Shown: positions 14,365 to 47,776 of the stretch, piece by piece
Position numbering within the stretch: the first letter of the stretch is position 1
Layout: every line of letters starts with the position of its first letter
DNA from: an uncultured Pseudomonadales bacterium
GTDB taxonomy: Bacteria; Patescibacteriota; Microgenomatia; UBA1400; MFAQ01
Assembly (NCBI GenBank): GCA_964348455.1
Contig: CAYGCQ010000002.1
Coordinates: 16,121 to 80,120, forward strand
Direction of reading: 5' to 3'
Length of the DNA stretch: 64,000 nt
Translations under genes and position numbers: made by a program
The notes under the pieces: model-generated
Databases searched by the model: none
What the model was told of the DNA's origin: nothing
What the model saw: only the letters and a program-made list of their open reading frames with translations

Positions 14365-15186
14365 CTATAGCCAGCGGAAATAACTTCCCGGGAAACTAAC
14401 CTCTACCCCTCCAAACCGCCTTTTAAATTCAGTAAAACCTAACCATCTTTTTTGTGGGGTACGTTCGTCATAAATTCCCTCCAGGTCAAAAAAATTTAAG
14501 CCATTGTTTTTGGCTCTGAGTATTTCTTCCCAAACCAGTTTATAGTGAGCTCCTGAAACTCTCCCCACTTCACTTGTCCAGGTTTGATAGTAGTTTGCAC
14601 AGTCTTTGCTGTAAATTATCAAAAGTCCGGAATGATACGACTCTCCCGACCTGCTAACAATAAGCCTAGCATTCCCTTCAAATCTTTTTAAAATACTCGC
14701 CAGCTCCTTTTCTTTCATGGTCCAAACCTTACTATTTTTTTTCCATAATTTGAAAAACTTCCCAGGATCACACTCTTCCACGACTAAGTTTTTATTTTTT
14801 GATATCTGTCTTCTTGCATTTTCTGACAAATCTTTCCAAAGTTCTTTCTCGCTTTTTGTCAGATCAAGGATAAAAGTTTTTGTTGCTAAGTAGGGGAATT
14901 TACTTATTTTATATCCCGCCATTTTATAACCCAGTTCGTCCTGAACTCTCATCGGCTCAATCACCGAAGACACCACTTTATATTTTTTCTTAAGTTTTTT
15001 TAGGGCTTTCCAGTTAGGGTCATATCGAGATCTCTGTAACTTCATCATCTTCATCCCCATTAAACCAAGTGGAATAATAAAGACATTCATGTTGTGTTTT
15101 TTATCTTCAGATACTATAGATATGACCTTCCATCCTTTGTCTTGCAGATATCCTGCCCATCCGGCTGTCTGCCTAATATCTTCCAT
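14365..15186 (-). CDS. FemAB-family peptidoglycan interpeptide-bridge aminoacyltransferase-like protein (second paralog)
   Basis: Pairs with the adjacent FemX-like gene; similar C-terminal region (KRRFGG.. / FKQGYGGEL). Confidence 0.5.
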   Translation of the reverse strand: MEDIRQTAGWAGYLQDKGWKVISIVSEDKKHNMNVFIIPLGLMGMKMMKLQRSRYDPNWKALKKLKKKYKVVSSVIEPMRVQDELGYKMAGYKISKFPYLATKTFILDLTKSEKELWKDLSENARRQISKNKNLVVEECDPGKFFKLWKKNSKVWTMKEKELASILKRFEGNARLIVSRSGESYHSGLLIIYSKDCANYYQTWTSEVGRVSGAHYKLVWEEILRAKNNGLNFFDLEGIYDERTPQKRWLGFTEFKRRFGGVEVSFPGSYFRWL

Positions 15187-19363: not shown

Positions 19364-20428
19364 ATGAAACTTCGTCATGTTCGACCTTTTCGTGTTGCCA
19401 TCAAATTTTTCTCCACAATCCGTCAACACCTCTTACTAATTTTATTTGCATTCCTACTTGCCACAATCACTTCGCTTGGGGTTTATGGATTTCGCCTTTT
19501 AAATCAGCACAATGTAACACCTCAAGATCTTTTGAGCTTCTTTGGAAAGCCTTCACAAAATCTAGAGAGCACAAATAATATTACCAACTTTCTCTTGCTC
19601 GGAATAAGAGGTGAGGGCGCCGACTCACCCCTACTTACCGACACCATGATTATTTTTTCCTACAATCACGAATCAAAAATACCAACCACAATCAGTATCC
19701 CCAGGGATTTGTGGGTTCCATCCGGCAAGACAAGAATAAATGCGATGTATCAATATGGTGAAGAGGCTAGTCCTGGGGGTGGTATCGCCAGCATTCAAGG
19801 GGCGGTGTTAGAAGATTTAGGTCTGCCAATTCATTACACTGCCGTAGTAGACTTTGAGGTTTTTAGAGAGGCAATAGACCTAGTTGGGGGCATCGATGTA
19901 GATGTGAGTACTGGTTTTACCGACAATGAATTTCCAATACCAGGCAAAGAGAATGCTCTTCCTATTCCCTCACGTTACGAATCGATTACTTTTAACTCCG
20001 GCATTAACCACCTAGATGGAGAAACCGCTCTAAAATTTGTTCGGTCAAGACATTCTTTCGGCGATGAAGGGACAGACTTTGCCAGATCCAGACGTCAACA
20101 GCAAGTAATTTCTGCCTTAAGGCAGAAGATGGTCACCCCCTCATTCTTACTGGATGAAAAAAAAGTCAATTCATTACTGGATATCATTGGTTCAAACCTA
20201 AAAACAAACTTCCCGGCATACCTCTACCCTACTTTGGCCAAGCTAGCTCTCGACACCAAAGATCAAACCATTCAATCCCTGCCTCTTACGAATCTTCCTG
20301 ACGCCGACGGTGTCTCAATTCTTTACAATCCTCCGGTAAGAAACTACTCGGGTCAATGGGTGCTAATTGCCAAAGACAACAACTGGAACGCCCTAAAACA
20401 ATACTTGAAAAACCACCTCTCCCAATAA
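19364..20428 (+). CDS. LytR-CpsA-Psr (LCP) family cell-envelope polymer transferase
   Basis: N-terminal TM, LLLGIRGEGADSPLLTDTMII...ISIPRDLWV LCP core. Confidence 0.8.
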   Translation: MKLRHVRPFRVAIKFFSTIRQHLLLILFAFLLATITSLGVYGFRLLNQHNVTPQDLLSFFGKPSQNLESTNNITNFLLLGIRGEGADSPLLTDTMIIFSYNHESKIPTTISIPRDLWVPSGKTRINAMYQYGEEASPGGGIASIQGAVLEDLGLPIHYTAVVDFEVFREAIDLVGGIDVDVSTGFTDNEFPIPGKENALPIPSRYESITFNSGINHLDGETALKFVRSRHSFGDEGTDFARSRRQQQVISALRQKMVTPSFLLDEKKVNSLLDIIGSNLKTNFPAYLYPTLAKLALDTKDQTIQSLPLTNLPDADGVSILYNPPVRNYSGQWVLIAKDNNWNALKQYLKNHLSQ

Positions 20429-20532: not shown

Positions 20533-22509
20533 CTACCTCACCTTTATCAAGTACGTCCCACCATCTTCAAAAACTTTTACTCCTAGAGATAATATAATAT
20601 CTTCATTTACCTGATACGTAGTTCTCTCATCCTCTCCCACGATAATCCACCCGACGTTATATTCTTTAAGAAGTTCTATTATTTCTACGCTGTTAAAACC
20701 TTCATATATTCCTTTTACATCAGTCTCTCTAGCTGCCACTGGTTCGTACCCACCTCTCCAAAGCCACTCATGAACTCTCCACCCCTGAATAGTAGGCACC
20801 CCGGAAAAAACAGAAACAGCATTAAAGTTTGAGTAACTATCTCCCACCGCTTCCACCATATTTTTACCGTCATAATTTCCCCTTAGATACTTGATTGCAG
20901 CGTATCTTTCCGGCATGCTTGACTCCAACCACCTTTCTCCACTCAAGCCTGAATAGGTATTAAAATTCGCATAGAAATTTGGGAATGCCACTACCGGAAA
21001 CACCATGGTTCCAATGAATATAAATGCTACCGCAAATACGGCAAATGCTCTGTACCACAGAAAAAGTTTTCTTTCTCCATCAAACAACTTACCAAACAGT
21101 GCTCCCGCCAAAAGACCAATCATGATTGAAGCTTGATATGTAAGTTTGAACATTGTGTTTGCTCTTGGGTGATCGGGATAAATATCTTTGGCGTAGACGA
21201 CTTCAGGAATAATGATTAGTAGTAATATACAAATCGCTAATGTCCAGATTGGCAAAGATTTATCTCCTTTTTTCTCAGTCAATACCGCCAGCACACTTAC
21301 TGTTATTCCACCGGTCCACAATACCGCCAGCTCCCAAAGGGGAGTTCTTTCCGTAACCATCTTTATTCCACTCGAAATAGACTGAAAAGTTACAAACCAA
21401 GGTAAGGCCGTCAGTGCCATAAAGAGAAGCATCACTCCGGCAGATTTTAAAAGTTTGACAAACTCTCTATGATCTCTGAGTATCATAATTATTCCCGAAA
21501 CAGTTAGAAGTAGTCCATAAACAGCCACATCCCATGTATTGGTCATCATCATTACTCCAAATAAAATTCCCAGTATCATTTCATCCCATATTTTTCTCGA
21601 ATGAATCCAGTGCAAGAAAATTAAAACAAAAGCCAACACGACCGGCAAATCAATCAGGTGACCATGTAGGTCCGCAACGACGAAAGAGTACCCTGGGAAC
21701 TCGTGAATGGTGTTATGGATAAATCTGGTGGCGTCTGCGTACCAGTAACCCATCAATCCTTTATGATTTAAAAAATACCAAATTACATGGGTATTTCCTG
21801 CCAACACCGTGGCGAATGCTCCGGTTAGTCCTCCAATCATGCCGGACATGTATTTCTTTGTTCCGCTCAAGAAGTATGAAATTGAAAAAGAAATAGAAAG
21901 TGATAGACCGGCTATAAAGGCTAGCATCATGTTATACCCTACGGCCGGGTCGACGCCAAAGTATCGGATAACAATGCTCGCCCAGTAATGCCCAAAAGAA
22001 TAATAGTTTATCGACTTGCCTGCTTGCCACATATCTGCCGCCGGGAGTGTTGGAGACATCAGATATCGGTTTACAAACCCAAAGTCCATAAATTTTTCCA
22101 ATGAGTCAATGTTTGGTAAAAATCCCCTGATATAAGCGATACCAAAAAGACCAACAAAAAATAAATACTCTTCGATGACGATAATTTTAAGAGTAGTTCT
22201 GGAAACGCTAATACTTTTCAATCCGCTTTTAAAGATAATTCCTAAATTTAAAATAATTACACCAGTCGTAGCCAAAATCAAACCCTGGTTTGTGTTGGCA
22301 GCTACACCCAAATTTGCCAGTTCCCAGATGACTAGTCCCGACATCATTGTAGTCAATAGTCTGGAAAGTGGGTAACCATTATCCGGAAGGTTGTGAAACA
22401 ATTTTTTTGTCAAAGGAAAGCTAATAATCTGTAAAAGAAAACTAATCAGATAGACTCTCATTACCAGCGCAATATCAGAGTTAAACATGGTTTTTAAAGC
22501 TTTTAGCAA
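20533..22509 (-). CDS. large polytopic membrane protein, GT-C / DUF2298 (Chlor_Arch_YYY)-like putative glycosyltransferase with a C-terminal extracytoplasmic domain
   Basis: 658 aa, more than 12 TM helices, then a ~170-aa soluble C-terminal domain. FPGYSFVVADLHGHLIDLP resembles the DUF2298 conserved block. Assignment from memory, not searched. Confidence 0.35.
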   Translation of the reverse strand: MLKALKTMFNSDIALVMRVYLISFLLQIISFPLTKKLFHNLPDNGYPLSRLLTTMMSGLVIWELANLGVAANTNQGLILATTGVIILNLGIIFKSGLKSISVSRTTLKIIVIEEYLFFVGLFGIAYIRGFLPNIDSLEKFMDFGFVNRYLMSPTLPAADMWQAGKSINYYSFGHYWASIVIRYFGVDPAVGYNMMLAFIAGLSLSISFSISYFLSGTKKYMSGMIGGLTGAFATVLAGNTHVIWYFLNHKGLMGYWYADATRFIHNTIHEFPGYSFVVADLHGHLIDLPVVLAFVLIFLHWIHSRKIWDEMILGILFGVMMMTNTWDVAVYGLLLTVSGIIMILRDHREFVKLLKSAGVMLLFMALTALPWFVTFQSISSGIKMVTERTPLWELAVLWTGGITVSVLAVLTEKKGDKSLPIWTLAICILLLIIIPEVVYAKDIYPDHPRANTMFKLTYQASIMIGLLAGALFGKLFDGERKLFLWYRAFAVFAVAFIFIGTMVFPVVAFPNFYANFNTYSGLSGERWLESSMPERYAAIKYLRGNYDGKNMVEAVGDSYSNFNAVSVFSGVPTIQGWRVHEWLWRGGYEPVAARETDVKGIYEGFNSVEIIELLKEYNVGWIIVGEDERTTYQVNEDIILSLGVKVFEDGGTYLIKVR

Positions 22510-23779
22510 TTATTTCTGCTACCTCTCGACCCATTTTCACCGCATAGTTTGTCCCTCTATCAAAGGGGTACACCATGCTCATATTCGCCAAGTAGACGTT
22601 ATCAGTAATTTTTTGACTCGGTATATGCTTAGAATAGTTTACAGGGAATACAGGTTGAGCGAAAGGCTTTCGGAATAAGTATGAGTTCTTAATTAATTTT
22701 TTGTCAAAGTTATTGTTAATTTTTTTTATAAAAGGTAAGTACAACTTGAGTAGCTCTACTTTGGTCATATTCAATTGAGCATTATCATCAGGTAAATAGT
22801 TTCCAAGGTAGAGCAATCTATTATTCCCATACATTTTTTTATCAATCATGTTCGTATGTTCTACTGCTACCAAAAATGGAAAATTATTCTCCAAAATATT
22901 TAGCCAATACCCCGATAGTACTTTTCTGGATATCTCCAAAATAAGTGTTTGGCCCCATAGATAATTTAGTTTGGGGAACTTCAGTCCCTTAATAAGCTTT
23001 TCGGCAATTGGCGCAGGCGTCGTAACCACTACGGCATCAAACTCCTCGCCGTTAACAACAATTTTTTTGTTGGAACTCTTATTATCAAGCAATTTGTCAT
23101 CCTCGCGAATGCTGGGATCCACAGTCTTAATTTTCTTGACTACAGTGTTCAACCTTATCTCTCCACCATTCTTTTCAATAAATGTTTCCAGTTTCTCTAC
23201 AAACTCATCAAACCCACCCTCAAAGTAGCCGAGATTCTTTGTTCTTTTTGCTACTCTACTCCAAAACCAAGCTAAATTTACCACATCTACATAAGGTCCG
23301 AACTTGGCTGAGAGTAGTTTTTCCCAAATTAACTCATATCCTTCTCGACCTATTAATCGTGGAAGTGCCTCTACTGCTTTGTATCTTTCCAAGAACAGAC
23401 CATTTGGAATAATCTTTAGCACAAATAGCCCAACACCCATTCTTAGCCTTGACCATAGCGAGAGCTGGGAAAATCTTAAAAGTGAAAGGGGGGAGTCAAG
23501 TCGTACCTCTTTACTATTAAGAAAGCTGGAAGTTATCGGGTTTTTTATTAAAATCTTCGCATTCACTTTTTTCGCAAGGGAAAAAATATCCTTATCATTA
23601 GTAAAAATGTGATGATAGAAAACTTCTAAGTTCCACTTCCATTTTCCAGAATTAAATCCCCGTGCAAGACCTCCTGCTTTTTTGTCTGATTCGAATACAA
23701 CTGAGGAGATATTGTTGTCGGCTAAGTAAGCCGAGCAACAAAGTCCGGTGATGCCTCCACCAATTATCGCAACTCTCAT
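22481..23779 (-). CDS. FAD-dependent flavoenzyme, UDP-galactopyranose mutase (Glf)-like
   Basis: N-terminal Rossmann VAIIGGGITG...E.....GGLAR; YHHIFTNDKDIF matches the UGM GAHIFHTNDKYIW block. Overlaps the downstream membrane protein by 29 nt. Confidence 0.45.
   Translation of the reverse strand: MRVAIIGGGITGLCCSAYLADNNISSVVFESDKKAGGLARGFNSGKWKWNLEVFYHHIFTNDKDIFSLAKKVNAKILIKNPITSSFLNSKEVRLDSPLSLLRFSQLSLWSRLRMGVGLFVLKIIPNGLFLERYKAVEALPRLIGREGYELIWEKLLSAKFGPYVDVVNLAWFWSRVAKRTKNLGYFEGGFDEFVEKLETFIEKNGGEIRLNTVVKKIKTVDPSIREDDKLLDNKSSNKKIVVNGEEFDAVVVTTPAPIAEKLIKGLKFPKLNYLWGQTLILEISRKVLSGYWLNILENNFPFLVAVEHTNMIDKKMYGNNRLLYLGNYLPDDNAQLNMTKVELLKLYLPFIKKINNNFDKKLIKNSYLFRKPFAQPVFPVNYSKHIPSQKITDNVYLANMSMVYPFDRGTNYAVKMGREVAEIIAKSFKNHV
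23095..23120 (+). repeat. REP-like type B element embedded in frame inside the Glf-like CDS (encodes ...VDPSIREDDK... on the minus strand)
   Basis: tgtcatcctcgcgaatgctgggatcc with both family flanks. Confidence 0.5.
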
Positions 23780-23785: not shown

Positions 23786-25198
23786 TTATAGAGCTAAGAG
23801 TATTCCTATGATAGCTAGCATGAGTCCTCCGCCAAATGCGGCTATACCGGGGAAGTCTAAGATTCCAGTCTCAGGAAGTACTTCTCGTTGAGCTACAGCA
23901 TCTGTGGGAGCTACTGTTCCTCCGTCAACGATCTCATCTGTGGGAGCTACTGTTCCTCCGTCAACGATCTCGTCCGTTGGCGCAGCCGTAATCTCGTCCG
24001 TTGGTGCAGCCGTAATCTCATCAGTTGGAGCTGTTGTTGGGCAAACACAGGAACCTGCATCCAAACAGGCTGCTTTTCTACAGGTTTCTGTTCCGGTGTC
24101 ACAAGTTAGACCTGTGGTGCATTCGGAGTCGTCAGTGCATGACTCATTACAAGCAACTACGGACTTGACTGCAAGATCTTTGTCAGCTGTCTTTACGGTA
24201 TCGCCATATGAAAGTTCACTTGTATTTGTAATCACAGTCCCATTCACTGCCGCGTTTGAAACTTTGACCCTAAAAGTAAGCGTCTTTGACGCTCCTACAG
24301 CTAAAGTGATTCCAGAACAGGTAACTTTGTAGTTTGAGTTTGAAAAAGTACAGTCAGTGGTAGTATCTACAAATGTTAACAGATCTTGGTTCTCACCATC
24401 CAATGTATCTGAAACGGTTACATTTGTGGCTGGAGCAGTGCCATCATTTTTAATTACTAAAGCGTATATAAAAGTTTGGTTACGAGAAACTGTTGTGATG
24501 TCGGTTGTGGAACCTTCTTTAAAAGCTTTTTTAGTAATAGACACATCTACCACTTGGCATACAGCAGTTGCAGCACACTGTTTAGTAGTTGCTACTCCGC
24601 ACGAATCCGTACAAGTAGTGATCACCGATGCTGCCTGACCACAAGTAGTAGGACAATCGGGGGAACAAGTTACTTCAGCAGTAGCTACACAAATTGCAGT
24701 TGCAGACACTGAACAGGCCGCGGAAGTTTCGAAACAGATAGTACTGCCATCGGCTTTTTTGCATCTACCGTCGGTTTCGTCGCAGGTAAGTCCAGTAGCA
24801 CACCCGGAGGTTGAAGTACAAACTCCACATTCTGAGGGTTTTGTCGGAGGAGTGGGAGTTGTGGTTGGTGCGGTTGGACATTTAGTCATATCCTTCGTCC
24901 ACGCACCTCCTACGCTAGGGCAACACCAATTTTCATTTCCACAAACCTCTACTCGTCCGGTAGTGGTACAGACGGAATCGCTGGAAGTGCCATCAGACTC
25001 AGGAGGTGTACAGCTTTGTAAGAGGTTCGGTGTCGTTGGGTTCGGACAATGCTCCTCGCAGGTAGCAGCTCTGGAACCTGTTGGGACTATTCCCTGACCT
25101 GTACTAATTCTGTATGAAACAAAGATTGCTGCAGCTGCAATAAGAGCAATAAGAGCTATTGTTATGATTGCGACTATGTTTTTTCTTTTGTTATTCAT
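23786..25198 (-). CDS. Cys-rich, Thr-rich cell-surface protein with a DUF11-like repeat domain and a C-terminal LPETG sorting signal
   Basis: N-terminal TM; many Cys; C-terminal TAAPTDEI repeats; ends VLPETGILDFPGIAAFGGGLMLAIIGILLAL. Confidence 0.7.
   Translation of the reverse strand: MNNKRKNIVAIITIALIALIAAAAIFVSYRISTGQGIVPTGSRAATCEEHCPNPTTPNLLQSCTPPESDGTSSDSVCTTTGRVEVCGNENWCCPSVGGAWTKDMTKCPTAPTTTPTPPTKPSECGVCTSTSGCATGLTCDETDGRCKKADGSTICFETSAACSVSATAICVATAEVTCSPDCPTTCGQAASVITTCTDSCGVATTKQCAATAVCQVVDVSITKKAFKEGSTTDITTVSRNQTFIYALVIKNDGTAPATNVTVSDTLDGENQDLLTFVDTTTDCTFSNSNYKVTCSGITLAVGASKTLTFRVKVSNAAVNGTVITNTSELSYGDTVKTADKDLAVKSVVACNESCTDDSECTTGLTCDTGTETCRKAACLDAGSCVCPTTAPTDEITAAPTDEITAAPTDEIVDGGTVAPTDEIVDGGTVAPTDAVAQREVLPETGILDFPGIAAFGGGLMLAIIGILLAL
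23899..24018. repeat. intragenic tandem repeats: 36-bp unit x2 (perfect) then 24-bp unit x2 (1 mismatch), encoding the TDEITAAP / TDEIVDGGTVAP stalk repeats
   Basis: Direct repeats read from sequence, directly upstream (in gene sense) of the LPETG signal. Confidence 0.8.
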
Positions 25199-25210
25199 TT
25201 TTAATTTCGT

Positions 25211-27190
25211 TTAGTTAGCTGTGGCAACACAAACCCCTAAAGCATCAGGAGTTTTTGAGGATACTTTGCATTCAAACCCAGTCGGGCACTTAATTCCAGC
25301 GACTCCTGCACAAGTTGTTTGAATTGAAGCGGTAGAGGGCGCAGTGCTTACATAAGCCTCGAATTTATATGTTCCAGTTTTTGAAATAGTGTAGTCGTAG
25401 TATGAAGTTAGTTTGGTGGTTGTGTTTAATAGTCCGGAAGCAACAACTTCTACAGTGGAACTTGTTCCCTGAGTAATTCTAAACTTAGCTCTTAAATTCG
25501 CATTGTTTGATCGAACCGCTAATCTAATCTTGTCGTTAATTTTTATTTTGTTTCTTTGGTCCAGGGTCATCGGTGTGGTGTTAAATGTTCCATCAGTTTT
25601 TTGTGAGAACAAGCTAATCTCCATACAAGCACCTGGATTAGCTACGACACACACTTTGGTGCCAGGAACTGTTCTTTTTGTTCCGCAGTTGCTAGTTTGA
25701 TTTACTGTGGCAGTGGTACAAACTGTATTTGCATTAGGTGTCCAACTGGAAACTGTACAGCCTCCCCCTCCACCTTTTGTAGGAGTAGCAGTTACCCCAC
25801 CACCTCCTGTAGAACCGCCGCCACAACCCGAAGTTGACACTACGCATTTGCCACCTGAAATAGCTTCACCTTGGTGACAGCAAAATCTATCTTGGGTTGT
25901 AGCTGTTGCGGTGCTTTTACATGTAAATGCACCAGAGGTATAAGTTGTAGAACAGCAAAGTCCTGGGCTACATACGTCCGTGTACCCTCCGGCGGGTTTG
26001 CATGCTTTAGAGGTAGCACTGTATTCAGGATTTGCTGTAGAACAGCAAAGAGTTGGTGTGCCTACTGAGTTATTGCACGTAGATGCCCCAGCGGTTCCAG
26101 CCGGCAAATTACAATCAACACCCGCTGGACAAGTAGATTTAGACGGATTAGCCACACAAACAGCCCTCGCATTACATCCATCATATGTACCATTTAAACA
26201 ACATGTTAGTTTCATCGTTCCAGGCAAGCTAGAGTTATTAGGAGTACTGCTAAGAGGTGTTGTGCAACTTACTGTTTTTGTATCTTTTCCATATTCACAT
26301 GTTCCGGAAGGAGTTTGAACACATGTTCCTCCGATACACCTATCAGGACTAGTGCACCCAGAATCATTACCACAAATCGTATTGCGACACACTCCACCAA
26401 TAAATTTTTGATCCGCTTCACAACTTTCTGCGGGTGGTGGTGCTGCTGTGGCTGTCCCAGTGAAACACTTTCCACTTAACAAAGGTACTCCAGGGCTACA
26501 ACAGTACTGAGGGGTTGTTGAAGTTGATGAGGAGTAGCACTGTGTGCCTCCGGACTCTGCTCCAAAAGAACATTGTAAATTATTGCCAATAGAGTTACAT
26601 AACTTTTTAGCTGTTGACGGTGTCGGTGTTTTTGCGGGAGTGCCTGTAGCTTGTACACCTCCACAGCCAGATACTTCTGGGTGTCCAATACAACTTGTTT
26701 TTGTAGCATTACAGCTGAAACAGGGGCCGGGGCAGTTTGAAGAAGTACATGTGTATCCTGTTCCGTATCCAGTCGGTGTGGGGGCAATTGGTTTACAAAC
26801 ACCATTAACGCATTTCTCTTTTCCTGCTTTGCACTGAGAGGGGTTGTTTGTACAACCGCCTGCTGCAAACGGCTGAAGTGGTCCGGTCAAGGCTATTCCA
26901 CCTCTGGAAGCCAGCTGATTAGAAACATAATAAGCAGCTCCAGCTACACCCACTACTAGTAGTAAGGCAATCATTCCTAATGCAATTTGTTTAAATTTAT
27001 TTTTCGGTTTCTTCTCTGGCCATTGGATCTCAGGGGTAGTAGGTGATGTTGGTGTTATCGTGGTCGTGGTGGTGGAATCTGGAGTAGTTGTAGTGGTCGT
27101 GGTTAGAGGAGCTCCCAGCGGTTCTTGATTCGGCATCGGAGGATTAAATGGCTGACCGGAAGTTTGATTCGAAAGATTTTGTTCGTCCAT
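25211..27190 (-). CDS. very Cys-rich surface protein (about 60 Cys), N-terminal TM anchor, Thr-rich; paralog of 28244..30208; no C-terminal sorting signal
   Basis: Shares the N-terminal module AGAAYYVSNQL.SR.GIA.TGPLQPFAAGGCTNNP.QCKAGKE.CVNGVCKPIAPTPTGYGTGYTC with the paralog. Confidence 0.65.
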   Translation of the reverse strand: MDEQNLSNQTSGQPFNPPMPNQEPLGAPLTTTTTTTPDSTTTTTITPTSPTTPEIQWPEKKPKNKFKQIALGMIALLLVVGVAGAAYYVSNQLASRGGIALTGPLQPFAAGGCTNNPSQCKAGKEKCVNGVCKPIAPTPTGYGTGYTCTSSNCPGPCFSCNATKTSCIGHPEVSGCGGVQATGTPAKTPTPSTAKKLCNSIGNNLQCSFGAESGGTQCYSSSTSTTPQYCCSPGVPLLSGKCFTGTATAAPPPAESCEADQKFIGGVCRNTICGNDSGCTSPDRCIGGTCVQTPSGTCEYGKDTKTVSCTTPLSSTPNNSSLPGTMKLTCCLNGTYDGCNARAVCVANPSKSTCPAGVDCNLPAGTAGASTCNNSVGTPTLCCSTANPEYSATSKACKPAGGYTDVCSPGLCCSTTYTSGAFTCKSTATATTQDRFCCHQGEAISGGKCVVSTSGCGGGSTGGGGVTATPTKGGGGGCTVSSWTPNANTVCTTATVNQTSNCGTKRTVPGTKVCVVANPGACMEISLFSQKTDGTFNTTPMTLDQRNKIKINDKIRLAVRSNNANLRAKFRITQGTSSTVEVVASGLLNTTTKLTSYYDYTISKTGTYKFEAYVSTAPSTASIQTTCAGVAGIKCPTGFECKVSSKTPDALGVCVATAN

Positions 27191-27468
27191 TTCAGATATA
27201 TTAAGTCCAATAAAATAGGGCCTGAAATAAATATATCTGTTTTATTTCCCAGCGTCAATGATTATTATCATTTACTTTTATCAAATAGTTTTTCTTTTAG
27301 TGTGAGACAAACACTCAATCTTTTTTCCTTCAAAATAACAAGTTAAATGCACTTTTTCTTCACAAAAAAAGTTTCAAATAAAATTTTTATAAATAGAGTA
27401 AAACAAAATCATGAGAAAAAAACTCGCATTATTATTTTTTGCTTAAGACGTGCTGAGTGAACTCCTTC

Positions 27469-28221
27469 TTAGGGTAGAGGTTCTTCTGTTGTTGGCGTCT
27501 GTGAAGTCGAGTCATCAGTCCAAGTGACGTTTCCGAAGTCATCGATGATTATCGCTCTGCATTGATTTCCATAGCGAGCTGTGTTCGGAATGCCGCTACA
27601 GTCCACAGGCTCGTCAGGGTTAACCGTTGCATCTGGAACTACTTCTAGGGCGGGATCAGCCGTGGGGGCTTCGAATGCTGCAGGTTCACTCTCTGGAGCG
27701 GTTGGAGCTACCGCTTGTTGTCCACTGATGGCTTTTGAGACAGCGAAGACCCCACCGCCGGCGAGGCCAAGTACTAATATTGCTATCAATCCAACTATAA
27801 CGGGCGAAGTCCTTGTCTTTTTAGGTAACATTTCTTGGTTGCTAGTCGTCGCTGATGGGGTCGGAAGATCCATAGCTGTACTCGTAGTAGTAGTTGTGTT
27901 TGTCATCGAGTTGGTAGTTCCTGTCTCTCCCATTGGTGTCATTATCGGGGCAGATACGGAAGGTGGTGCTGAAAAAACGGGATTATCCAAGCCTGTAGTT
28001 TCGGGTTGAAAAGATCTTTCTGCCGATGTCGGCTCTGCTGGGGTAATGTCCTCAGTGCTCGTCGTTGTGGTCGTAGTTGTTAAATTAGGTGAGTCGACAG
28101 GTGGGTAGGATTCAGTCGGAGCTATGTCTAAGTTTGGCTGAGCTTGCGGCGGCTGGCTGGAAACAGGGGGTGTTCCTCCGGCTGAAGCGGTATTGAGGTT
28201 CCTTGTGTCGGTATTATCCAT
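27469..28221 (-). CDS. Pro/Thr/Ser-rich bitopic membrane protein, function unknown
   Basis: Low-complexity N-terminal half, central TM VIVGLIAILVLGLAGGGVFAV, 80-aa C-terminal domain with 2 Cys. Confidence 0.45.
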   Translation of the reverse strand: MDNTDTRNLNTASAGGTPPVSSQPPQAQPNLDIAPTESYPPVDSPNLTTTTTTTSTEDITPAEPTSAERSFQPETTGLDNPVFSAPPSVSAPIMTPMGETGTTNSMTNTTTTTSTAMDLPTPSATTSNQEMLPKKTRTSPVIVGLIAILVLGLAGGGVFAVSKAISGQQAVAPTAPESEPAAFEAPTADPALEVVPDATVNPDEPVDCSGIPNTARYGNQCRAIIIDDFGNVTWTDDSTSQTPTTEEPLP

Positions 28222-28243
28222 AATTTATTTTTCTAACTAATAA

Positions 28244-30208
28244 CTAAAGCGCAAGTAATATCCCCACAATTGTAAGTATAAGTCCTCCTCCAAAGGCGGC
28301 CACTCCGGCGAAGTCAAAAATTCCTGCTTCGGGTAATGCTGTTGGCCTAGGAGCTCTCGTTGCTGGGACTCTGGTTGGAACAGAAGCTGTTCGTTCTGTT
28401 GGTTTCGGGCACACACAGGAGGTTATATTTGAACATTCATTGTTTCTGCACTTATTCGTTTCCGTGTCGCATAACAGCCCATCTCCACATTCAGTATCAG
28501 AAGTGCAGGTGTGGTTACAACTCACTATGGTGCTGACTAATAAATCCTTTTCTGCTTTAAGAATTTTTCCCAAATAAGTTACAGTTGCAATATTTTTAAT
28601 TACTGTACCATTGACTACCGCGTCCGAAACGGTTGATCTAAAAGAAAACTCCTTTGTTTCACCCGGATCAAGTGAGGTGTTGCAGACAACCATTTTCTCC
28701 GGCGACGAGTACTCACAGACCGCCTCTTTATCAAGGAAGGTCAGTTTATCTTGGTTTAATCCTGTTAGGGGGTCGGTGATTTTTACCCCATCTGCCTTAT
28801 CAGCCGCATTGTTTGATACTTGAATCGTATATACGAATGTTTGATTTTTTGAGACAGTATCAATTTCCTGAGTCAAAGAGTAGTTTCCTGATGAGTTATC
28901 CGCTTCATCTTGATATGCCTTTTTGTCTATCGAAACATTTGATTCACAGGACTGTGTATTACATGCCTTTTCGGAATTTCCTCCGTCAACCTCATCACAG
29001 TTGAGAGCTCCACCACAACTTCCTTCAGTACAAGTTCTGGTTTGAGTTCCACCTCCACAAGACTTAGTACAATCACTCCAGTCAGACCAAATAGGTGGAG
29101 TTAATACACAAGTTGTCGCGGCCGTAAAATTTCCTTTACATCTATTGTCTTGTCCAAAAACAAGATTTGCCGCCGGTAGCATCAAGTATCTAGCTACGAT
29201 GGTGTAACTTCCTGCCGCCGGTATATTGTAAATATATTCAAATTTTCCGGTTGTCGAATTTAAAATTGTCGGTCCCCAATTTGCATCGTTAATTTTTATG
29301 TCTACTTGGGTAGTATTTTTCGCTGTCACTGCAAATTTTATACGTGAACCTGGCTTTGCTTCAGCTGATAGTTCAGCAGAAGTAAGATTTTTCCAAGACC
29401 CATCTGTTTGTTGAATGGAATAGTCAATGGCGGTACATGAGACAACTGGCGTTGGTGTTGGTGTGGGAGTTTTTGTCGGCGAAGGGGTAGTTGTAGTCTT
29501 CGTTGGTGTCGGTGTAGATGTCTTAGTTGGCTTAGGTGTTGTAGTACTGCCTCCGGAAGAGACACACCCATTACCGCTTGGATTACATACGTATCCCACT
29601 GCACAGCAAGTCATTGCTTTTCCTGTCATATTGATACACCAAGATCTGCCTTGATTCCCACAAGAAATTCGAGTATCGCTTCTACACTCATAACCGGTAC
29701 AAGCATCACCACCTAGACAGTGACAGTCTGCAGCTGGGCATGTTGACCCACAATGGTTAATTACATTTCCATTTGCATCTCTCGGGGCTCCTTCATCGAT
29801 TGGTAGTGCGATGTTTTGTCCTGCTATCCCAGTGCTTGAAACACCCGCACAGCCGAGGGAAATACAACTTGTTTTAGCGGCATTACACTTGAAACACGGT
29901 GATGGACAGTTCGTGGTTGTGCATGTATACCCTGTTCCATAACCTGTGGGTGTAGGGGCAATAGGTTTGCAAACACCATTCACACATGTTTCTTTTCCTG
30001 CTTTACACTGAGCTGGATTGTTTGTACAACCACCAGCAGCAAAAGGCTGAAGAGGTCCAGTTGGGGCTATTCCTGCTCTGGAAGACAACTGATTAGAAAC
30101 ATAATAAGCCGCACCGGCAATTACCACCATCAAAACAGTCGCAATTATGCCTAATAGCAATCGTCGCCTTCGGACTTTATTTTGTTTCAATGACTCTTCT
30201 CCGCTCAT
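28244..30208 (-). CDS. Cys-rich surface protein with N-terminal TM, PT-rich linker, TSP1-like motif, DUF11-like domain and a C-terminal LPEAG sorting signal
   Basis: WSDWSDCTKSCGGGTQTRTC motif; C-terminus ALPEAGIFDFAGVAAFGGGLILTIVGILLAL. Confidence 0.7.
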   Translation of the reverse strand: MSGEESLKQNKVRRRRLLLGIIATVLMVVIAGAAYYVSNQLSSRAGIAPTGPLQPFAAGGCTNNPAQCKAGKETCVNGVCKPIAPTPTGYGTGYTCTTTNCPSPCFKCNAAKTSCISLGCAGVSSTGIAGQNIALPIDEGAPRDANGNVINHCGSTCPAADCHCLGGDACTGYECRSDTRISCGNQGRSWCINMTGKAMTCCAVGYVCNPSGNGCVSSGGSTTTPKPTKTSTPTPTKTTTTPSPTKTPTPTPTPVVSCTAIDYSIQQTDGSWKNLTSAELSAEAKPGSRIKFAVTAKNTTQVDIKINDANWGPTILNSTTGKFEYIYNIPAAGSYTIVARYLMLPAANLVFGQDNRCKGNFTAATTCVLTPPIWSDWSDCTKSCGGGTQTRTCTEGSCGGALNCDEVDGGNSEKACNTQSCESNVSIDKKAYQDEADNSSGNYSLTQEIDTVSKNQTFVYTIQVSNNAADKADGVKITDPLTGLNQDKLTFLDKEAVCEYSSPEKMVVCNTSLDPGETKEFSFRSTVSDAVVNGTVIKNIATVTYLGKILKAEKDLLVSTIVSCNHTCTSDTECGDGLLCDTETNKCRNNECSNITSCVCPKPTERTASVPTRVPATRAPRPTALPEAGIFDFAGVAAFGGGLILTIVGILLAL

Positions 30209-30285
30209 AACAGTGTCCTTAATAAATGTATATCTGATTTACTTTTAATATAGTTTGTATTCAATTAACAAGCAACTTAGGATCT

Positions 30286-31647
30286 TTATTCCTTGATCCA
30301 TTTTCTACTTAGACTGCCAAATAGTAATAATAAAATTCCAAATAGACTAAGCCCCAGAGTCGTTGCCAATCCTCCGGCATCGGTAAGGTCGCCAGATTCA
30401 GTTGCCGGCATCGAAGTCACAACTGTTGGTTCTGGAGTGACAGCCTCGATTGGAGGAAGTGATTCTGTAGGTATCAATATTGGAGTTGCAGACGGAGTCG
30501 CTGTAAAAGCGGGCTGATCACTTAGAAGTACCGAGAACGTTCTAATAATTTTAATTACTTGATTATTTTCGATAGTGTACTCAATCGTTAACGAGTGATC
30601 ACCTGGTTCTAATTTTTCCGGTGGAGTCCACACCCAGTTTCCGTCATCATCTGCTTGAACTACTTGAACTTGCTCTACGGACTTCAAAGTCAATTTGATA
30701 ACCGTTCCTGTTGGAGCTTTCCCTCTTATCTCCGGCTGATCTGTGGCAATTACCTCTCCGTTTGTAGCCGGATTTAGCACTTTAACCGAACTTGTTGCTT
30801 CCAGTTGCTCAGATATGGCTATTTGAGTTAGTTCTAATTGAAATCCTTCACCTGACGGTGCGACTGTTTCCGGTTCTATTGCTGAGATTTGCTGACCACC
30901 TTCAATAAAGCTTTGATTTTTTCCTAATACGATATCCGGCACCGGCTTGTCTTTGCTGGTATCTGTAAGTGCTGTTGCTGTTCCAACACCTCCTGCTTGA
31001 ACAAAAATTGAAAGTAGAGTTTTAGTTTTATCGTAAGTCAATATTCCGCCGGCCTTGTCTCTTGAGCTAGCTAAATTAAGCCTCCAAGTACCATCCGACT
31101 TTGTAATCGTTGAAAGTGTCTGCCCACCCTCTGCTTCCACAAACACAATACCGCCATTTACAGCATCACCAGTTTCTCGAACTACTTTTCCAAAAATAAT
31201 ATCTTCCGGCGGAGCAATGGCTTGTGCGGTTGTTCTAATCTGAAACGGTTTTCCGTTGTCATCATAGGTGCCAGACCCTGAAATGATTAAGAAGTAATAC
31301 GTTTTGTTTGCCGAAAGACCAGAAACATTTACTGTGTGGCTGTTATAACTTTGAGAAGTTCCTGATATTTGGTCTCTAACATCTCCCGCTGGAATTATTA
31401 TTTTTGCCGGATCTTCAGAGTATTTTATTAATCCTGTTAACGGAGTATCCGTAGTCCAACTGACACTGTAAGTTGTCGATCCCAGATTGGAAATCTTAAT
31501 ATTTTTTGGACTCTCGGAAGGTCCGGCTTTGGACTCAAGCCCGGTTCTCATATTTACTACAATGACACCGGCAATCAATCCACCAATAAGAATTATTACC
31601 CCTAATAGGGTCGGAATTCTTTTTGACATTAATCCTTTTGTTGCCAT
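30286..31647 (-). CDS. multidomain surface protein: N-terminal TM, FN3/purple-acid-phosphatase-N-like, carboxypeptidase-regulatory-like and bacterial Ig-like domains, C-terminal LTDAGG + TM + basic tail
   Basis: Domain-like blocks read from sequence; C-terminus ...GDLTDAGGLATTLGLSLFGILLLLFGSLSRKWIKE. Confidence 0.5.
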   Translation of the reverse strand: MATKGLMSKRIPTLLGVIILIGGLIAGVIVVNMRTGLESKAGPSESPKNIKISNLGSTTYSVSWTTDTPLTGLIKYSEDPAKIIIPAGDVRDQISGTSQSYNSHTVNVSGLSANKTYYFLIISGSGTYDDNGKPFQIRTTAQAIAPPEDIIFGKVVRETGDAVNGGIVFVEAEGGQTLSTITKSDGTWRLNLASSRDKAGGILTYDKTKTLLSIFVQAGGVGTATALTDTSKDKPVPDIVLGKNQSFIEGGQQISAIEPETVAPSGEGFQLELTQIAISEQLEATSSVKVLNPATNGEVIATDQPEIRGKAPTGTVIKLTLKSVEQVQVVQADDDGNWVWTPPEKLEPGDHSLTIEYTIENNQVIKIIRTFSVLLSDQPAFTATPSATPILIPTESLPPIEAVTPEPTVVTSMPATESGDLTDAGGLATTLGLSLFGILLLLFGSLSRKWIKE

Positions 31648-31650
31648 ATT

Positions 31651-31971
31651 TTATTGTAGCGGTGGTATAACCTCTGCTGATGGACTTGCTTCCACTAGAG
31701 AAGGTGTCGGGGTGATGGTAGGGGTTTCTTCCGGCACAATCTTTACAGCGTTGATATCATCATCCGTTATTTTTGTTCTTTTTTCTAGGTTATCAATCGA
31801 TGTTTGGCTAATGACACCATCAATAGGCTTCACTATAATTATTTGATTCTCGGTCAGCTGACTTTTTGTAGCAGCAGAAAAAATTTGAAATGCCAGAATT
31901 CCTCCAACAATCGACAAACTCATAACTCCTATGAGTAAAATATACATGGAAAAGGTGTTTTTTGGCTTCAT
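31651..31971 (-). CDS. small N-terminally anchored membrane protein (possible PilP-like accessory), overlaps the pilO-like stop (ATGA)
   Basis: 106 aa, single TM; translationally coupled to the upstream gene. Confidence 0.35.
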   Translation of the reverse strand: MKPKNTFSMYILLIGVMSLSIVGGILAFQIFSAATKSQLTENQIIIVKPIDGVISQTSIDNLEKRTKITDDDINAVKIVPEETPTITPTPSLVEASPSAEVIPPLQ

Positions 31972-32624
31972 GTCTGTTGGTAGAAATAAAAGTATATTTG
32001 ACCAGAAGCTTTCAGTGTTGAAGTTCCCTGTACCATTCCCGGTTCGGAAGTCAACACTACGCTGCTTAGGTATGACAATCTATCCATATTTTCAATCTCC
32101 ATTAAAAATGACTTTACGTTTGCGGGGTCACCTGAAACTGCAAAAGATACATTTAGTTGGACAATGTTATTTGTGTCTTTAATTGACAATTTTCGTGACC
32201 ATTCACCCGATGCTTTTCCTGTTCCAAATAGCTTTGTCCCCGGCATAGAAACTGTTTGTACTGTCAGACCTTTATTCTGGGCAAGATACTCAATCCTGCC
32301 TGCCATATCATAATATGAGAATTGGCTTGGAACAGCTGCGTCAAAAAGGCTCAGTTTATCCTTAAACTTGTTCAGTTCTGTTTGGGCGTTAAAAACTTGA
32401 GCAATTTTATTGTCGGCTTTTATATTAAAAGAATTTAAATCTTCAATCTTTTTTTGCAAAGAGGCGATATTTGTCAGTGTTGGTCTGATGGCTGCAAAAA
32501 TCAACACTGTCACTGTAAATACAGAAAGAATCACTTCTAAAGAAGCCTTAACTTCAGGCTTCTGATAAATCAAGTTTATTCTTCTGTAAATAAGAGAATA
32601 TTTTTCGTTACTTACAAGAGGCAT
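31968..32624 (-). CDS. pilO: type IV pilus assembly protein PilO-like
   Basis: N-terminal TM + coiled coil + about 100-aa C-terminal domain; start overlaps the pilN-like stop (TAATG). Confidence 0.45.
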   Translation of the reverse strand: MPLVSNEKYSLIYRRINLIYQKPEVKASLEVILSVFTVTVLIFAAIRPTLTNIASLQKKIEDLNSFNIKADNKIAQVFNAQTELNKFKDKLSLFDAAVPSQFSYYDMAGRIEYLAQNKGLTVQTVSMPGTKLFGTGKASGEWSRKLSIKDTNNIVQLNVSFAVSGDPANVKSFLMEIENMDRLSYLSSVVLTSEPGMVQGTSTLKASGQIYFYFYQQT

Positions 32625-33169
32625 TATTTTAAAGTAGTTTGAATATTAAACTTTACGGTACCGGATGTCTGGTCGAAGTTTGTTTCTTTCATGGATAAGC
32701 GAGAGATTCCATCTATCTTCTTCAAGTTTCTCAACAGTTGAGCAAAACCTAGCTCGGTCTCCGACTCTCCAGTGAGAACCATACCGGCACTATCAATAGC
32801 CAATTTATCCAATTTAACTCCTGGTGGCATTAAACCTCCCAGCTCATCATATCTTTGGCCAAAAGATAAATTTTTCGTTAAATAGTTATTGACTGGAGCT
32901 TGTTTGGCCAAATAATATCTGATGGTTGCTTCTGTTTCTGCAAACGCTTGAATCTGAATTTGTTTTTGATCTATTTCATCATTTAGGTCATTAACCTTTT
33001 TGTCAAAATAGAACCTAGAACCGAAAGCTAGCAGAACAACGAACTCAGTCAGAACCACCAGCACTCTGCCTGTAGTAGTTGCCCATGACAAAAATTTACC
33101 CAATGAAGAATAACTAAAGCTATCTTTAGGTAATAAATTTATATGGAAAACTCCTTGCTGGGCAGCCAC
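32624..33169 (-). CDS. pilN: type IV pilus assembly protein PilN-like
   Basis: N-terminal hallmark HINLLPK (the PilN INLLP motif) followed by a TM helix and coiled coil. Confidence 0.6.
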   Translation of the reverse strand: MAAQQGVFHINLLPKDSFSYSSLGKFLSWATTTGRVLVVLTEFVVLLAFGSRFYFDKKVNDLNDEIDQKQIQIQAFAETEATIRYYLAKQAPVNNYLTKNLSFGQRYDELGGLMPPGVKLDKLAIDSAGMVLTGESETELGFAQLLRNLKKIDGISRLSMKETNFDQTSGTVKFNIQTTLK

Positions 33170-33512: not shown

Positions 33513-35162
33513 GTGGTAAACAAGATAATTAGCAAATCTCAAGAGTTTTTTAATCGCAAAAGCAACAGCATTTTGTCAGCTGCTGTTATTATCGGTATCT
33601 CTTATCTAGGCTCAGCACTTCTGGGGCTAATTCGAAACCACCTCTTAGCAGCTAGATTTTTCGGGGGGCTAGAAGCTGACTTGGATGTCTATTTTGCCGC
33701 TTTTGTCATTCCGGACACTGTTTTCCAGCTCCTGGTTGTTGGCGCAGTCTCAGCCTCTTTTATACCTGTATATCAAGAATATTTTGAAAAGTCTGAGGAA
33801 AAAGCACACGAGCTTGCCAATGCAGCACTCACTACCATCGGGTTTTTCCTCTTAATCTTTTCTGTCATCATAATCATTTTTGCCAGGCCTCTAGCTGGAC
33901 TTTTGGCTCACTTCCCTCCGGAAAAACTGGAACTAATGGCCAATCTCATCCGGATGATGTCTGCCGCTCAGATACTTTTTGCTCTTTCGGCTTTTCTCAC
34001 AGGGGTCTTGCAGTCTGAGCGTCGTTTTTTAATTCCAGCTATCGCCCCTCTGCTTTATAACCTTGGCACAATCTCCGGAATTTACTTTCTTTCATCTCGT
34101 TTTGGCATCTATTCTGCCGCCATAGGCGTCGTTTTTGGAGCTTTTCTGCACATGGCCATTCAGCTTCCAACGGCGAGGTCTCTGGGATACTGGCCAAAGA
34201 TAGTCTGGCGAATGAAACATCCTGGAGTCATGACAATGTTAAAGCTTATGCCCCCTAGAACCATGTCTTTAGGGCTTGATCAGATCGAGCGTTGGGTGGC
34301 TGTTAACCTGACCTCTTTACTAGCCGTTGGGTCACTTTCAATTTTTAATTTTGCACGACAACTGTATGTATTGCCCATCTCTTTGTTTGGTGTTTCTCTT
34401 AGTCAGGCTTCTTTCCCCATCCTGGCCAAGGAAGCTCTTTACGAGGACAAGTCTCAATTCAAGGCTACTCTCAGTAAATCAATTCTTCAAATTTTCTTTT
34501 TTGCTCTACCTGCCAGTGTTCTAGTTTTGGTTCTGCGCATTCCTCTTGTTCGACTAGCTTTTGGAGCCAAGAATTTTCCGTGGGAAGCCACCCTACTAAC
34601 AGGGAAAGCTCTTGCTTTTTTCAGCATAGCTATCGCCCCCCAAGCGGTTACCAACACACTCACCAGAGCCCTTCACGCCCTAAAAGACACTAAGACTTCT
34701 CTGGTAATTGGCTTTATTACCATGATTGTTTTTGTTGGGCTGGCTTATGCCCTTGGTTTAATAGTTGAGAGGGATGTGGCCATCATTACTCTGGCTATGT
34801 CTATTGGAAACATCGTTGATTTTCTTTTGTCATATTTAGCAGTTCGTCGGAAGGTAGGCCCGTTAGGGATATCAGTAAGAATGATAAAAATGGTTTTCGT
34901 TAGCCTTTTTACTGGCATCTCGCTTTGGCTTCCCATGAGGTTACTGGACCAGTTAGTCTTTGATACTACCCGGACCCTCCCCCTCATCACTTTAACTCTT
35001 GTTGTTAGTACCGTTGGTTTCTCCGTCTACCTGTACTTTTGCTGGTTGTTTGACATCGAAGAACTTCAAGATGTTTTTGATATCATGAAAAAGATTGGTA
35101 ATTGGCGTAAAATACTCGCCAGTAGCGACGAGGTACTCGAGACTACTCCCAACAACATATAA
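33513..35162 (+). CDS. murJ: lipid II flippase MurJ/MviN
   Basis: 549 aa, 14 TM; N-terminal GLIRNHLLAARFFGG..ADLDVYFAAFVIPD MurJ block. Confidence 0.85.
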   Translation: MVNKIISKSQEFFNRKSNSILSAAVIIGISYLGSALLGLIRNHLLAARFFGGLEADLDVYFAAFVIPDTVFQLLVVGAVSASFIPVYQEYFEKSEEKAHELANAALTTIGFFLLIFSVIIIIFARPLAGLLAHFPPEKLELMANLIRMMSAAQILFALSAFLTGVLQSERRFLIPAIAPLLYNLGTISGIYFLSSRFGIYSAAIGVVFGAFLHMAIQLPTARSLGYWPKIVWRMKHPGVMTMLKLMPPRTMSLGLDQIERWVAVNLTSLLAVGSLSIFNFARQLYVLPISLFGVSLSQASFPILAKEALYEDKSQFKATLSKSILQIFFFALPASVLVLVLRIPLVRLAFGAKNFPWEATLLTGKALAFFSIAIAPQAVTNTLTRALHALKDTKTSLVIGFITMIVFVGLAYALGLIVERDVAIITLAMSIGNIVDFLLSYLAVRRKVGPLGISVRMIKMVFVSLFTGISLWLPMRLLDQLVFDTTRTLPLITLTLVVSTVGFSVYLYFCWLFDIEELQDVFDIMKKIGNWRKILASSDEVLETTPNNI

Positions 35163-47768: not shown

Positions 47769-47776
47769 AGTCCAAA

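Follow-up and report, generated by a model that had tools for sequence, protein, structure and literature searches.

LPETG is the canonical sortase A motif, and it opens the C-terminal end of Staphylococcus aureus protein A, which we take to be LPETG-EEN-PFIGTTVFGGLSLALGAALLAG-RRREL. Signals of this type can also be private to one protein: a proteobacterial sortase with an LPQTG vWFA target is reportedly, according to Haft, a dedicated sortase-single target system. In the passages of two published accounts on which we draw, the classical signal is a pentapeptide followed by a hydrophobic stretch and by positive residues that halt translocation (PMC4617865, PMC4155245). In this study, a stretch of 64 kb filed as DNA of an uncultured Pseudomonadales bacterium (contig CAYGCQ010000002.1, positions 16,121 to 80,120; hereafter the window) was analysed. 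Two of its surface proteins carry LPETG or LPEAG ahead of a terminal hydrophobic helix and then stop, an end called type 1 here, and a third carries LTDAG, a hydrophobic helix and a basic tail, called type 2. We consider the type-1 end to be probably a sortase signal of dedicated use, with a helix of specific sequence in place of the charged tail that serves for retention. All genes of interest lie on the minus strand, and the open reading frames, read with their translations, gave the following features.

23786..25198, minus strand: open reading frame of a 470-residue surface protein, ending in ...LPETGILDFPGIAAFGGGLMLAIIGILLAL and a stop
23789..23878, minus strand: type-1 tail of the 470-residue protein, its last 30 codons, LPETG-ILDFPG-IAAFGGGLMLAIIGILLAL, with LPETG at 23864-23878 and the stop codon TAA at 23786-23788
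28244..30208, minus strand: open reading frame of a paralogous 654-residue surface protein, ending in ...LPEAGIFDFAGVAAFGGGLILTIVGILLAL and a stop
28247..28336, minus strand: type-1 tail of the 654-residue protein, LPEAG-IFDFAG-VAAFGGGLILTIVGILLAL, with LPEAG at 28322-28336 and the stop codon TAG
30286..31647, minus strand: open reading frame of a 453-residue Ig-like surface protein, ending in ...LTDAGGLATTLGLSLFGILLLLFGSLSRKWIKE and a stop
30289..30387, minus strand: type-2 tail of the 453-residue protein, LTDAG-GLATTLGLSLFGILLLLFG-SLSRKWIKE-stop, with LTDAG at 30373-30387, a variable hydrophobic helix and the basic end SRKWIKE

These reading frames and C termini agree with the three ends quoted in a preliminary description of this DNA, which also called the first two signals nearly identical. 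That was an understatement, as the two tails are one conserved C-terminal module. The type-1 tail of the 470-residue protein is without any Lys or Arg. Set against the protein A end, the module, here LPETG-ILD-FPGIAAFGGGLMLAIIGILLAL, has its elements in the same order (acidic, Pro, Gly-rich helix) and then stops. As a degenerate DNA pattern, FGGGL-x5-GILLAL-stop occurs at exactly two sites in the 64 kb and at none in 100 shuffles. Because many synonymous positions differ between the tail DNAs of the 470- and 654-residue proteins, the likeness of the two tails does not come from a recent DNA duplication.

A database search with the 470-residue protein yielded 91 homologues, the named ones belonging to Collierbacteria, Woesebacteria or Microgenomates. 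The same 30-residue end was found in 90 of the 91, so that the lack of a basic tail, remarked on in the preliminary description for the LPETG and LPEAG proteins, is shared by nearly all of them. The consensus reads L-P-[ED]-[TA]-G / I-[LF]-D-[FL]-P-G / [VI]AAFGGGLLLA[IV][IV]GILLAL-stop. Across 90 tails L(-30), G(-26), G(-13), G(-6), L(-3) and A(-2) were invariant, while D(-23), P(-21), G(-20), F(-16), GG(-15/-14) and most of GILLAL were conserved to at least 97%. Within the pentapeptide, L and G were found in 100% of the homologues, P in 92%, E in 89% and T or A in 97%. LPETG accounted for 64 tails and LPEAG for 13, followed by LTDAG (5) and LVEAG (2), with LPDAG, LPSTG, LPESG, LPASG, LPKSG and LPQTG seen once each; LAEAG is present beside LVEAG among the distinct tails. 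The motif had been described as relaxed, and indeed LPETG, LPEAG, LPDAG, LPSTG, LVEAG, LAEAG and LTDAG all stand on the same helix.

The type-1 pentapeptide, of LPXTG type and near the C terminus in both window proteins, is placed five residues ahead of a 20-residue hydrophobic helix and behind a hypervariable Thr/Pro linker. The hydrophobic segment comprises 20 uncharged residues (predicted helix 457-469 in the 470-residue protein) and runs directly into the stop (...GILLAL-stop), so that type 1 has no positively charged C-terminal tail, whereas type 2 does. Loss of such a tail through truncated gene calls or assembly errors has a negligible probability. The same end recurs in more than 90 sequences that are independent and come from many assemblies and platforms, TAA, TAG or TGA follows immediately in 95 distinct tails taken from contigs of genomes and metagenomes, and in the window the next gene starts 6 nt on. 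Read-through of the stop codon, which would add 'RK' to the 470-residue protein, was also considered and rejected, as the bases in question are the spacer ahead of the next start codon.

The degree of conservation along the protein was expressed as the consensus fraction, the share of sequences with the consensus residue, in an alignment of 59 sequences. It was 0.92 for the pentapeptide and 0.90 for the 25 residues following it, compared with 0.58 for the CLIPPER domain, 0.39 for the N-terminal Cys-rich part and 0.34 for the linker directly upstream of the pentapeptide. Among 45 distinct tail DNAs, the mean amino-acid identity was 77% at a third-codon identity of only 34%, and the DNA differed in 67% of the codons for the same residue. 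Because amino acids are retained although the third codon positions are saturated, the type-1 peptide is under strong purifying selection at the protein level.

Within the conserved helix, small residues recur at i/i+4 spacing (AAFGGGLLLAIVGILLAL-COOH), after the invariant Asp and the Pro-Gly. Such spacing is typical of helix-helix packing, and it brings in a different explanation, in which the type-1 end is a permanent C-terminal anchor or docking helix that is never cleaved and packs on PilN/PilO, on the N-terminal helix of the same protein or on itself. LPETG-ILDFPG would then be a mere conserved juxtamembrane segment. The conservation of the helix, which exceeds that of the pentapeptide, fits this explanation, as do the missing basic tail, the lack of an adjacent sortase and the shared operon with the bitopic PilN/PilO proteins. 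However, neither chance nor structure is likely to produce an exact LPETG or LPEAG at a constant distance ahead of a terminal helix, the remaining layout is that of a sorting signal, and in a divergent GLFLAL subfamily the helix is altered and the motif nevertheless kept as LPxSG/LPQTG. We regard a permanent anchor as unlikely, though it is the alternative to be taken most seriously.

The distribution of the type-1 module was assessed at the protein and the DNA level. Among 1.84 billion representative proteins, a profile built from the 40-residue tail matched 87 at E<=0.001, about 80 of them genuine and each genuine one at the exact C terminus. Their bodies were mostly CLIPPER plus Cys-knot, 230-1060 residues long, and some were small, Thr/Pro-rich and without CLIPPER. 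The endings varied between GILLAL, GILFAL, GLFLAL and GIILAL, with a basic tail in none. A DNA pattern scan of one genome per species (185,579 species) detected 38 loci, all of them in Collierbacteria, Woesebacteria, Microgenomates or Patescibacteria metagenome-assembled genomes (MAGs), some clearly mislabelled. With a relaxed pattern, 103 stretches were detected in JGI metagenomes and 0 in viral contigs; the latter result rules out a viral origin of the module. In a complete 1.09-Mb Collierbacteria genome there are two type-1 copies at one locus, and contigs of 905, 841, 704 and 526 kb have one copy each. The type-1 module is no general sorting tag but an ending reserved for one or two, rarely three, paralogues. 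A general anchoring system with many clients is not supported: the genome-wide search for such ends that the preliminary description had proposed found only one or two in each complete genome, and every one of them belongs to this operon. Its view of the signal as lineage-specific holds, type-1 ends being confined to Microgenomates (Collierbacteria, Woesebacteria and relatives).

Several MAG records with titles such as 'uncultured Pseudomonadales', 'Spirochaetia bacterium' and 'Microbacter sp.' carry the Microgenomates-specific operon (loci L007-L010, L017, L019, L024, L026, L027 and others). The taxon labels of these records are evidently wrong.

The 453-residue protein belongs to a family of its own, with 151 homologues. 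Its divergent motif and basic tail, as first described, are conserved among its own orthologues, as an end of a different type. The type-2 module comprises a conserved MPAT, about five residues, L-x-x-[TSA]-G, a variable helix and G[RK]xSKKWW[RK]D. In 118 orthologues this motif, looser than that of type 1 and in a narrower form L-x-[DE]-[TSA]-G, has L in 97% and G in 100%, with the same variable helix and basic end. In 116 sequences the motif had L in 97% and G in 100%, with T, E, S, A or V at position 2, mostly D at position 3 and T, S or A at position 4; Pro at position 2 occurred in 1 of the 116 only (VPQTG). The consensus fraction in the type-2 helix is about 0.4, within a range of ~0.2-0.7. 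Type 2 is an internal control in the same genomes: the basic-tailed helix evolves freely, whereas the tail-less one is frozen. The suggestion of two classes of anchoring fits these data, one with a frozen helix and no basic tail and the other with a variable helix and G[RK]xSKKWW[RK]D. The five type-1 tails in 90 that have LTDAG in place of LPETG on an otherwise identical helix provide a link between the two types. Judged by its sequence, the 453-residue protein may be a second client, of classical architecture, for the same or a second sortase, but because the Pro is lost from its motif, processing by a sortase is an even bet.

The bodies of the tail-bearing proteins were compared with known clients of sortases. 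The 470-residue protein consists of an N-terminal transmembrane helix, Cys-rich modules, a CLIPPER (DUF11) Ig-like domain, a Cys-knot, a Thr/Pro/Asp-rich repeat linker and the type-1 tail; it matches PF01345 at 2e-10, and PF24595 as well. In the 654-residue protein (PF01345, 9.4e-09), the N-terminal transmembrane helix is followed by a Cys-rich region common to its 659-residue neighbour, a Thr/Pro linker, the CLIPPER domain, the Cys-knot and the type-1 tail, and its orthologue at the related locus L037 is 63% identical. The CLIPPER scores of the 470- and 654-residue proteins, 41.4 and 36.0 bits, are above the Pfam gathering cutoff of 24.6, and the residues K223, D264 and N325, candidates for an isopeptide bond, are conserved in the domain. 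The 453-residue protein has the domains fn3/Pur_ac_phosph_N, CarboxypepD_reg and Big_13. An AlphaFold (AF2) model of the 470-residue protein with a mean predicted local distance difference test score (pLDDT) of 80 shows an N-terminal helix (4-32), small Cys-rich units, a beta-sandwich (190-345, pLDDT >93), the Cys-knot, a disordered linker (389-450) and the terminal helix (457-469). Foldseek matched the sandwich to the CLIPPER crystal structure 9ifr (E 8.4e-07, TM(target) 0.62) and the sortase-assembled pilins BcpA (3kpt), EbpB (9lr7) and PilB (S. sanguinis). Published work counts CLIPPER/DUF11 among the CnaA-like isopeptide domains that occur in fibrillar adhesins and pilins (PMC12617251). 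With this predicted CLIPPER/CnaA-like Ig domain and its matches to pilin folds, the type-1 body appears typical of sortase clients.

The likeness to sortase-assembled pilins and CLIPPER adhesins (BcpA 3kpt, EbpB 9lr7, CLIPPER 9ifr) extends to the Ig-like CnaA-type fold and the C-terminal sortase motif. It raises the thought of a sortase-polymerised fibre, in which the three motif proteins would be tip, shaft and base of a covalent pilus of Gram-positive type, the type-1 signal leading to polymerisation and the basic-tailed type-2 signal to wall attachment of the base. One operon does hold three L-x-x-x-G proteins, the body is CLIPPER/CnaA-like with the major or basal pilins BcpA, PilB and EbpB as best structural matches, and two signal classes resemble the distinction of shaft and base in known pili. 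Unlike BcpA, EbpB and the CLIPPER adhesins, however, each protein here has a single Ig domain, placed between Cys-rich knots, and its N-terminal transmembrane segment may persist. Unlike sortase pilus operons, the genes are operonic with PilN/PilO-like proteins, and no pilus-specific (class C) sortase accompanies the pilin genes in seven gene neighbourhoods of relatives or in 150 related loci. Kantor et al. moreover call candidate phyla radiation (CPR) pili type IV, not sortase pili (PMC3812714). We consider such a fibre quite improbable.

As a sorting signal, type 1 resembles the LPXTG signal (TIGR01167/PF00746) in its C-terminal LPETG/LPxTG after a Thr/Pro-rich wall-spanning linker, the acidic residue(s) and the Pro that follow the Gly, the Gly-rich hydrophobic helix of ~20 residues, the ~30 residues from Leu to the end and the adhesin/pilin-like body. 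Unlike that signal, it has no Lys/Arg tail, its helix is nearly invariant and not merely hydrophobic, its Thr is often Ala, its Pro is occasionally Thr, Val or Ala, and it serves one or two clients per genome. When isolated tails were scanned against NCBIfam and Pfam at E<=10, the sole NCBIfam match was to TIGR01167 LPXTG_anchor, for one tail only and at 10.8 bits against a cutoff of 15.9; the alignment covered profile positions 1-28 of 34, that is, all but the basic end. No Pfam model, PF00746 included, matched the isolated tails at that threshold, and a search for the tail strings in the searchable literature returned nothing relevant. One or few clients per genome and a well-conserved signal throughout are also features of the dedicated sortase-single target systems, which differ in their adjacent enzyme and basic tail, as no sortase lies within 10 kb here in the genomes examined. 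The class E signals (LAXTG; Streptomyces SrtE1, PMC5148588) give a precedent for the loss of Pro at position 2, as in LAEAG and LVEAG, but they retain a basic tail and serve many clients.

The systems PEP-CTERM/exosortase, PGF-CTERM/archaeosortase and GlyGly-CTERM/rhombosortase likewise combine a short C-terminal motif with a helix and are lineage-restricted. The type-1 end could be addressed to an enzyme other than a sortase, either of these kinds or an intramembrane protease that reads the helix. A conserved helix at low copy number is known from Haft-type sorting domains (bioRxiv 10.1101/2023.06.07.544157), and 'PG[VI]AAF' faintly recalls PGF-CTERM. However, the signature motifs of those systems are different ones and all come with a basic cluster, which type 1 does not have. 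Only LPXTG_anchor among the NCBIfam and Pfam sorting models gave any signal, and PEP-CTERM, PGF-CTERM, GlyGly-CTERM and other NCBIfam sorting models matched neither isolated tails (E<=10) nor whole proteins. No exosortase, archaeosortase or rhomboid gene was found in the window or in the syntenic flanks of relatives. A signal for a non-sortase enzyme is, in our estimate, very unlikely.

A sortase that could process the type-1 end was searched for in several ways. Pfam and NCBIfam scans and inspection of unassigned reading frames revealed no sortase, exosortase, archaeosortase or rhomboid among the window proteins. All six-frame reading frames of the window and of 150 related loci were screened with a TLxTC-type regular expression with His/Arg context and with phmmer; neither the motif scan nor phmmer with approximate sequences of S. 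aureus SrtA and SrtB gave anything credible. No sortase was found in ~1.17 Mb around the 150 loci, in the contig stretch beyond the window start or within +-10 kb in seven gene neighbourhoods of relatives. Hidden processing enzymes were considered and rejected among the operon's own products: DUF2298 and the amine oxidase belong to unrelated families, and the small proteins (the 106-residue protein, PilN and PilO) are without Cys or His.

At the level of the lineage, the literature supports the presence of a sortase. In the dataset of Meheust et al., the sortase family PF04203/K07284 counts 1903 proteins in 1020 CPR genomes, against 12 non-CPR genomes, and it is called 'near ubiquitous in Microgenomates' (PMC6744442). 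The complete genome Ch65, sibling to Collierbacteria, has a sortase (PMC7143001), and Kantor et al. reported sortases together with predicted sorted proteins in WWE3 and TM7 (PMC3812714). Because the fixed LPETG/LPEAG, the wall-spanning linker, the pilin/adhesin-like body and the envelope genes of Gram-positive type coincide in a sortase-rich lineage, a sortase signal is the most likely explanation of the type-1 end. The missing basic tail, the frozen small-residue helix and the one or two clients suggest retention by sequence-specific docking of the helix and not by charge.

Several points weigh against a sortase signal. Dedicated sortase-target pairs are usually adjacent, and the searches above revealed no sortase in the window or in ~1.17 Mb around the 150 related loci, so that the pairing of enzyme and substrate is a putative one in this genome. 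Conservation is higher in the helix than in the pentapeptide, where T reaches only 73% and P can give way to T, V or A. This reverses the classical pattern and also fits a permanent uncleaved anchor. If the N-terminal segment were uncleaved, it would by itself anchor the protein in the membrane. The basic tail that type 1 lacks furthermore counts as a necessary element of such signals in the passages cited at the outset (PMC4617865, PMC4155245).

The genes of the three proteins belong to a single long minus-strand gene array at 20.5-33.2 kb of the window, whose other members are the following.

32624..33169, minus strand: PilN-like bitopic protein, first gene of the cluster (PF05137, 36.8 bits, cutoff 22.8)
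31968..32624, minus strand: PilO-like bitopic protein (PF04350, 25.4 bits, cutoff 22)
31651..31971, minus strand: 106-residue bitopic protein, translationally coupled to the PilO and 453-residue genes and conserved in all relatives
27469..28221, minus strand: 250-residue Thr/Pro-rich protein with no tail, one internal transmembrane helix and the same juxtamembrane motif
25211..27190, minus strand: 659-residue Cys-rich secreted paralogue with no sorting tail, sharing the N-terminal module and ~110 residues with the 654-residue protein
22481..23779, minus strand: flavin adenine dinucleotide (FAD) amine-oxidase-like protein, its gene beginning 6 nt downstream of the final tail gene and syntenic in all relatives
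20533..22509, minus strand: DUF2298/Chlor_Arch_YYY polytopic membrane protein, overlapping the oxidase gene (PF10060 3.9e-80, TIGR03662 1.2e-120)

The PilO score passes its cutoff only as a sum, with no single stretch passing alone. The PilN/PilO-like genes (31968-33169, minus strand) head the operon, with no PilM gene adjacent and rpsT and MurJ upstream instead; PilM, PilB and PilC are not nearby. Because neighbouring genes overlap or lie close together (overlaps of PilN/PilO at 32624 and of PilO/106-residue protein at 31968-31971, most other gaps 3-78 nt), the cluster fits one transcription unit. The same gene order was found in every relative examined, distant homologues included: rpsT, PilN-like, PilO-like, a ~110-residue bitopic protein, a ~455-residue Ig-like protein, a tail-less Cys-rich protein, one to three CLIPPER proteins with a type-1 tail, the FAD amine-oxidase-like protein and DUF2298/Chlor_Arch_YYY. 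The tail-less Cys-rich gene (550-790 residues in the comparison with the 659-residue paralogue, 550-1190 in that of the whole gene order) is syntenic in each of them. The DUF2298 protein is a possible partner of glycosyltransferase type, and together with the amine oxidase it might glycosylate or otherwise modify the tail proteins, given their Thr/Pro-rich linkers.

In the relatives, MurJ/LepA border the cluster on one side, and LytR-CpsA-Psr, TIM, UvrD and two FemAB genes do so on the other. The window has two FemAB genes, a LytR-CpsA-Psr ligase and MurJ (14365-16206, minus; 19364-20428, plus; 33513-35162, plus), which are conserved operon neighbours in all relatives. These neighbours are consistent with a wall of Gram-positive type with an interpeptide bridge, although they only make such a wall likely.

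Further features were seen in the proteins themselves. The tail-bearing proteins and the tail-less operon paralogues share an N-terminal module with a K/R-rich start and then a long transmembrane helix (homologues P0092-P0159). About 20 residues past this helix is a conserved stretch '[VI]APT[AG]P.S.P.AA' (25085-25198, 30090-30208, 26900-27000, 27650-27790), which is too distant from that helix to be an ordinary signal-peptidase site and may be a second, N-terminal recognition element. The Cys-knot between CLIPPER and linker, C-N-x2-C-T-x-D-x-E-C-x2-G-L-x-C-D-x5-C-R-x3-C (24045-24150, minus strand), occurs in two or three copies in some homologues (P0094, P0112, P0097), and its only match is a weak one to TIGR04201 Myxo_Cys_RPT. 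Two perfect or near-perfect tandem DNA repeats with periods of 36 and 24 (23899-24028) encode the PTDEI(VDGGTVA/TAA) linker upstream of LPETG, and the linker length is probably variable between strains.

The steps that we infer for type 1, namely cleavage, its enzyme and a docking role of the helix, would run as follows. The protein would be exported by Sec via its N-terminal hydrophobic segment, and the C-terminal helix would be held in the membrane, with the L-P-[ED]-[TA]-G pentapeptide presented on its outer side. A sortase whose gene lies elsewhere in the genome would cut after the Thr or Ala and join the CLIPPER/pilin-like ectodomain to a precursor of peptidoglycan or perhaps to a further subunit. 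In place of a Lys/Arg stop-transfer tail, retention would come from docking of the near-invariant helix on a membrane partner, for which the sortase's own membrane anchor and the PilN/PilO-like bitopic proteins at the head of the operon are candidates. The whole system would be dedicated to one or two proteins of this operon. A more far-reaching version, which we put forward as speculation with a low probability, makes the type-1 end a hitherto undescribed two-part address, composed of a sortase pentapeptide and a partner-specific transmembrane 'zip code' that docks on a PilN/PilO-like platform. The result would be a hybrid surface apparatus, aligned by type IV pilus components and fixed by a sortase, with an isopeptide-stabilised CLIPPER adhesin or fibre spanning the Gram-positive-like wall; operon membership gives it circumstantial support.

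Some observations in the window concern other subjects. The GC skew is negative in 24 of 32 2-kb bins and on average, whatever the gene orientation (cumulative -2.14), which matches the enrichment of C on one strand reported for Collierbacteria and relatives (PMC7143001). A UDP-glucose/GDP-mannose dehydrogenase at 6929-7999 (minus strand) has an N-terminal helix-turn-helix/LexA-like DNA-binding domain, an unusual fusion. The reading frame of ribosomal protein S15 at 47662-48138 (plus strand) extends ~70 residues ahead of the Pfam domain, either through a mis-set start or as a CPR-type extension. No tRNA genes or Rfam families (gathering threshold) were found in the 64 kb.

CPR bacteria are believed to live in attachment to other cells, and their surface proteins are likely contact points, of which, to our knowledge, none is characterised. 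The type-1 end marks out a conserved surface module that occupies a single locus in Collierbacteria and Woesebacteria and has a searchable signature, and it exposes a gap in the curated models of sorting signals. It would be a natural sortase-type signal without the charged tail that has long been held to be required for retention, the constraint having moved to the helix. The module escapes all curated models and lacks the charged tail they describe, and it is as such a testable oddity, not a new principle. If cleavage does occur, retention is achievable by sequence-specific docking of a helix, which would affect substrate-prediction tools, as they now miss these proteins, and possibly sortase engineering.

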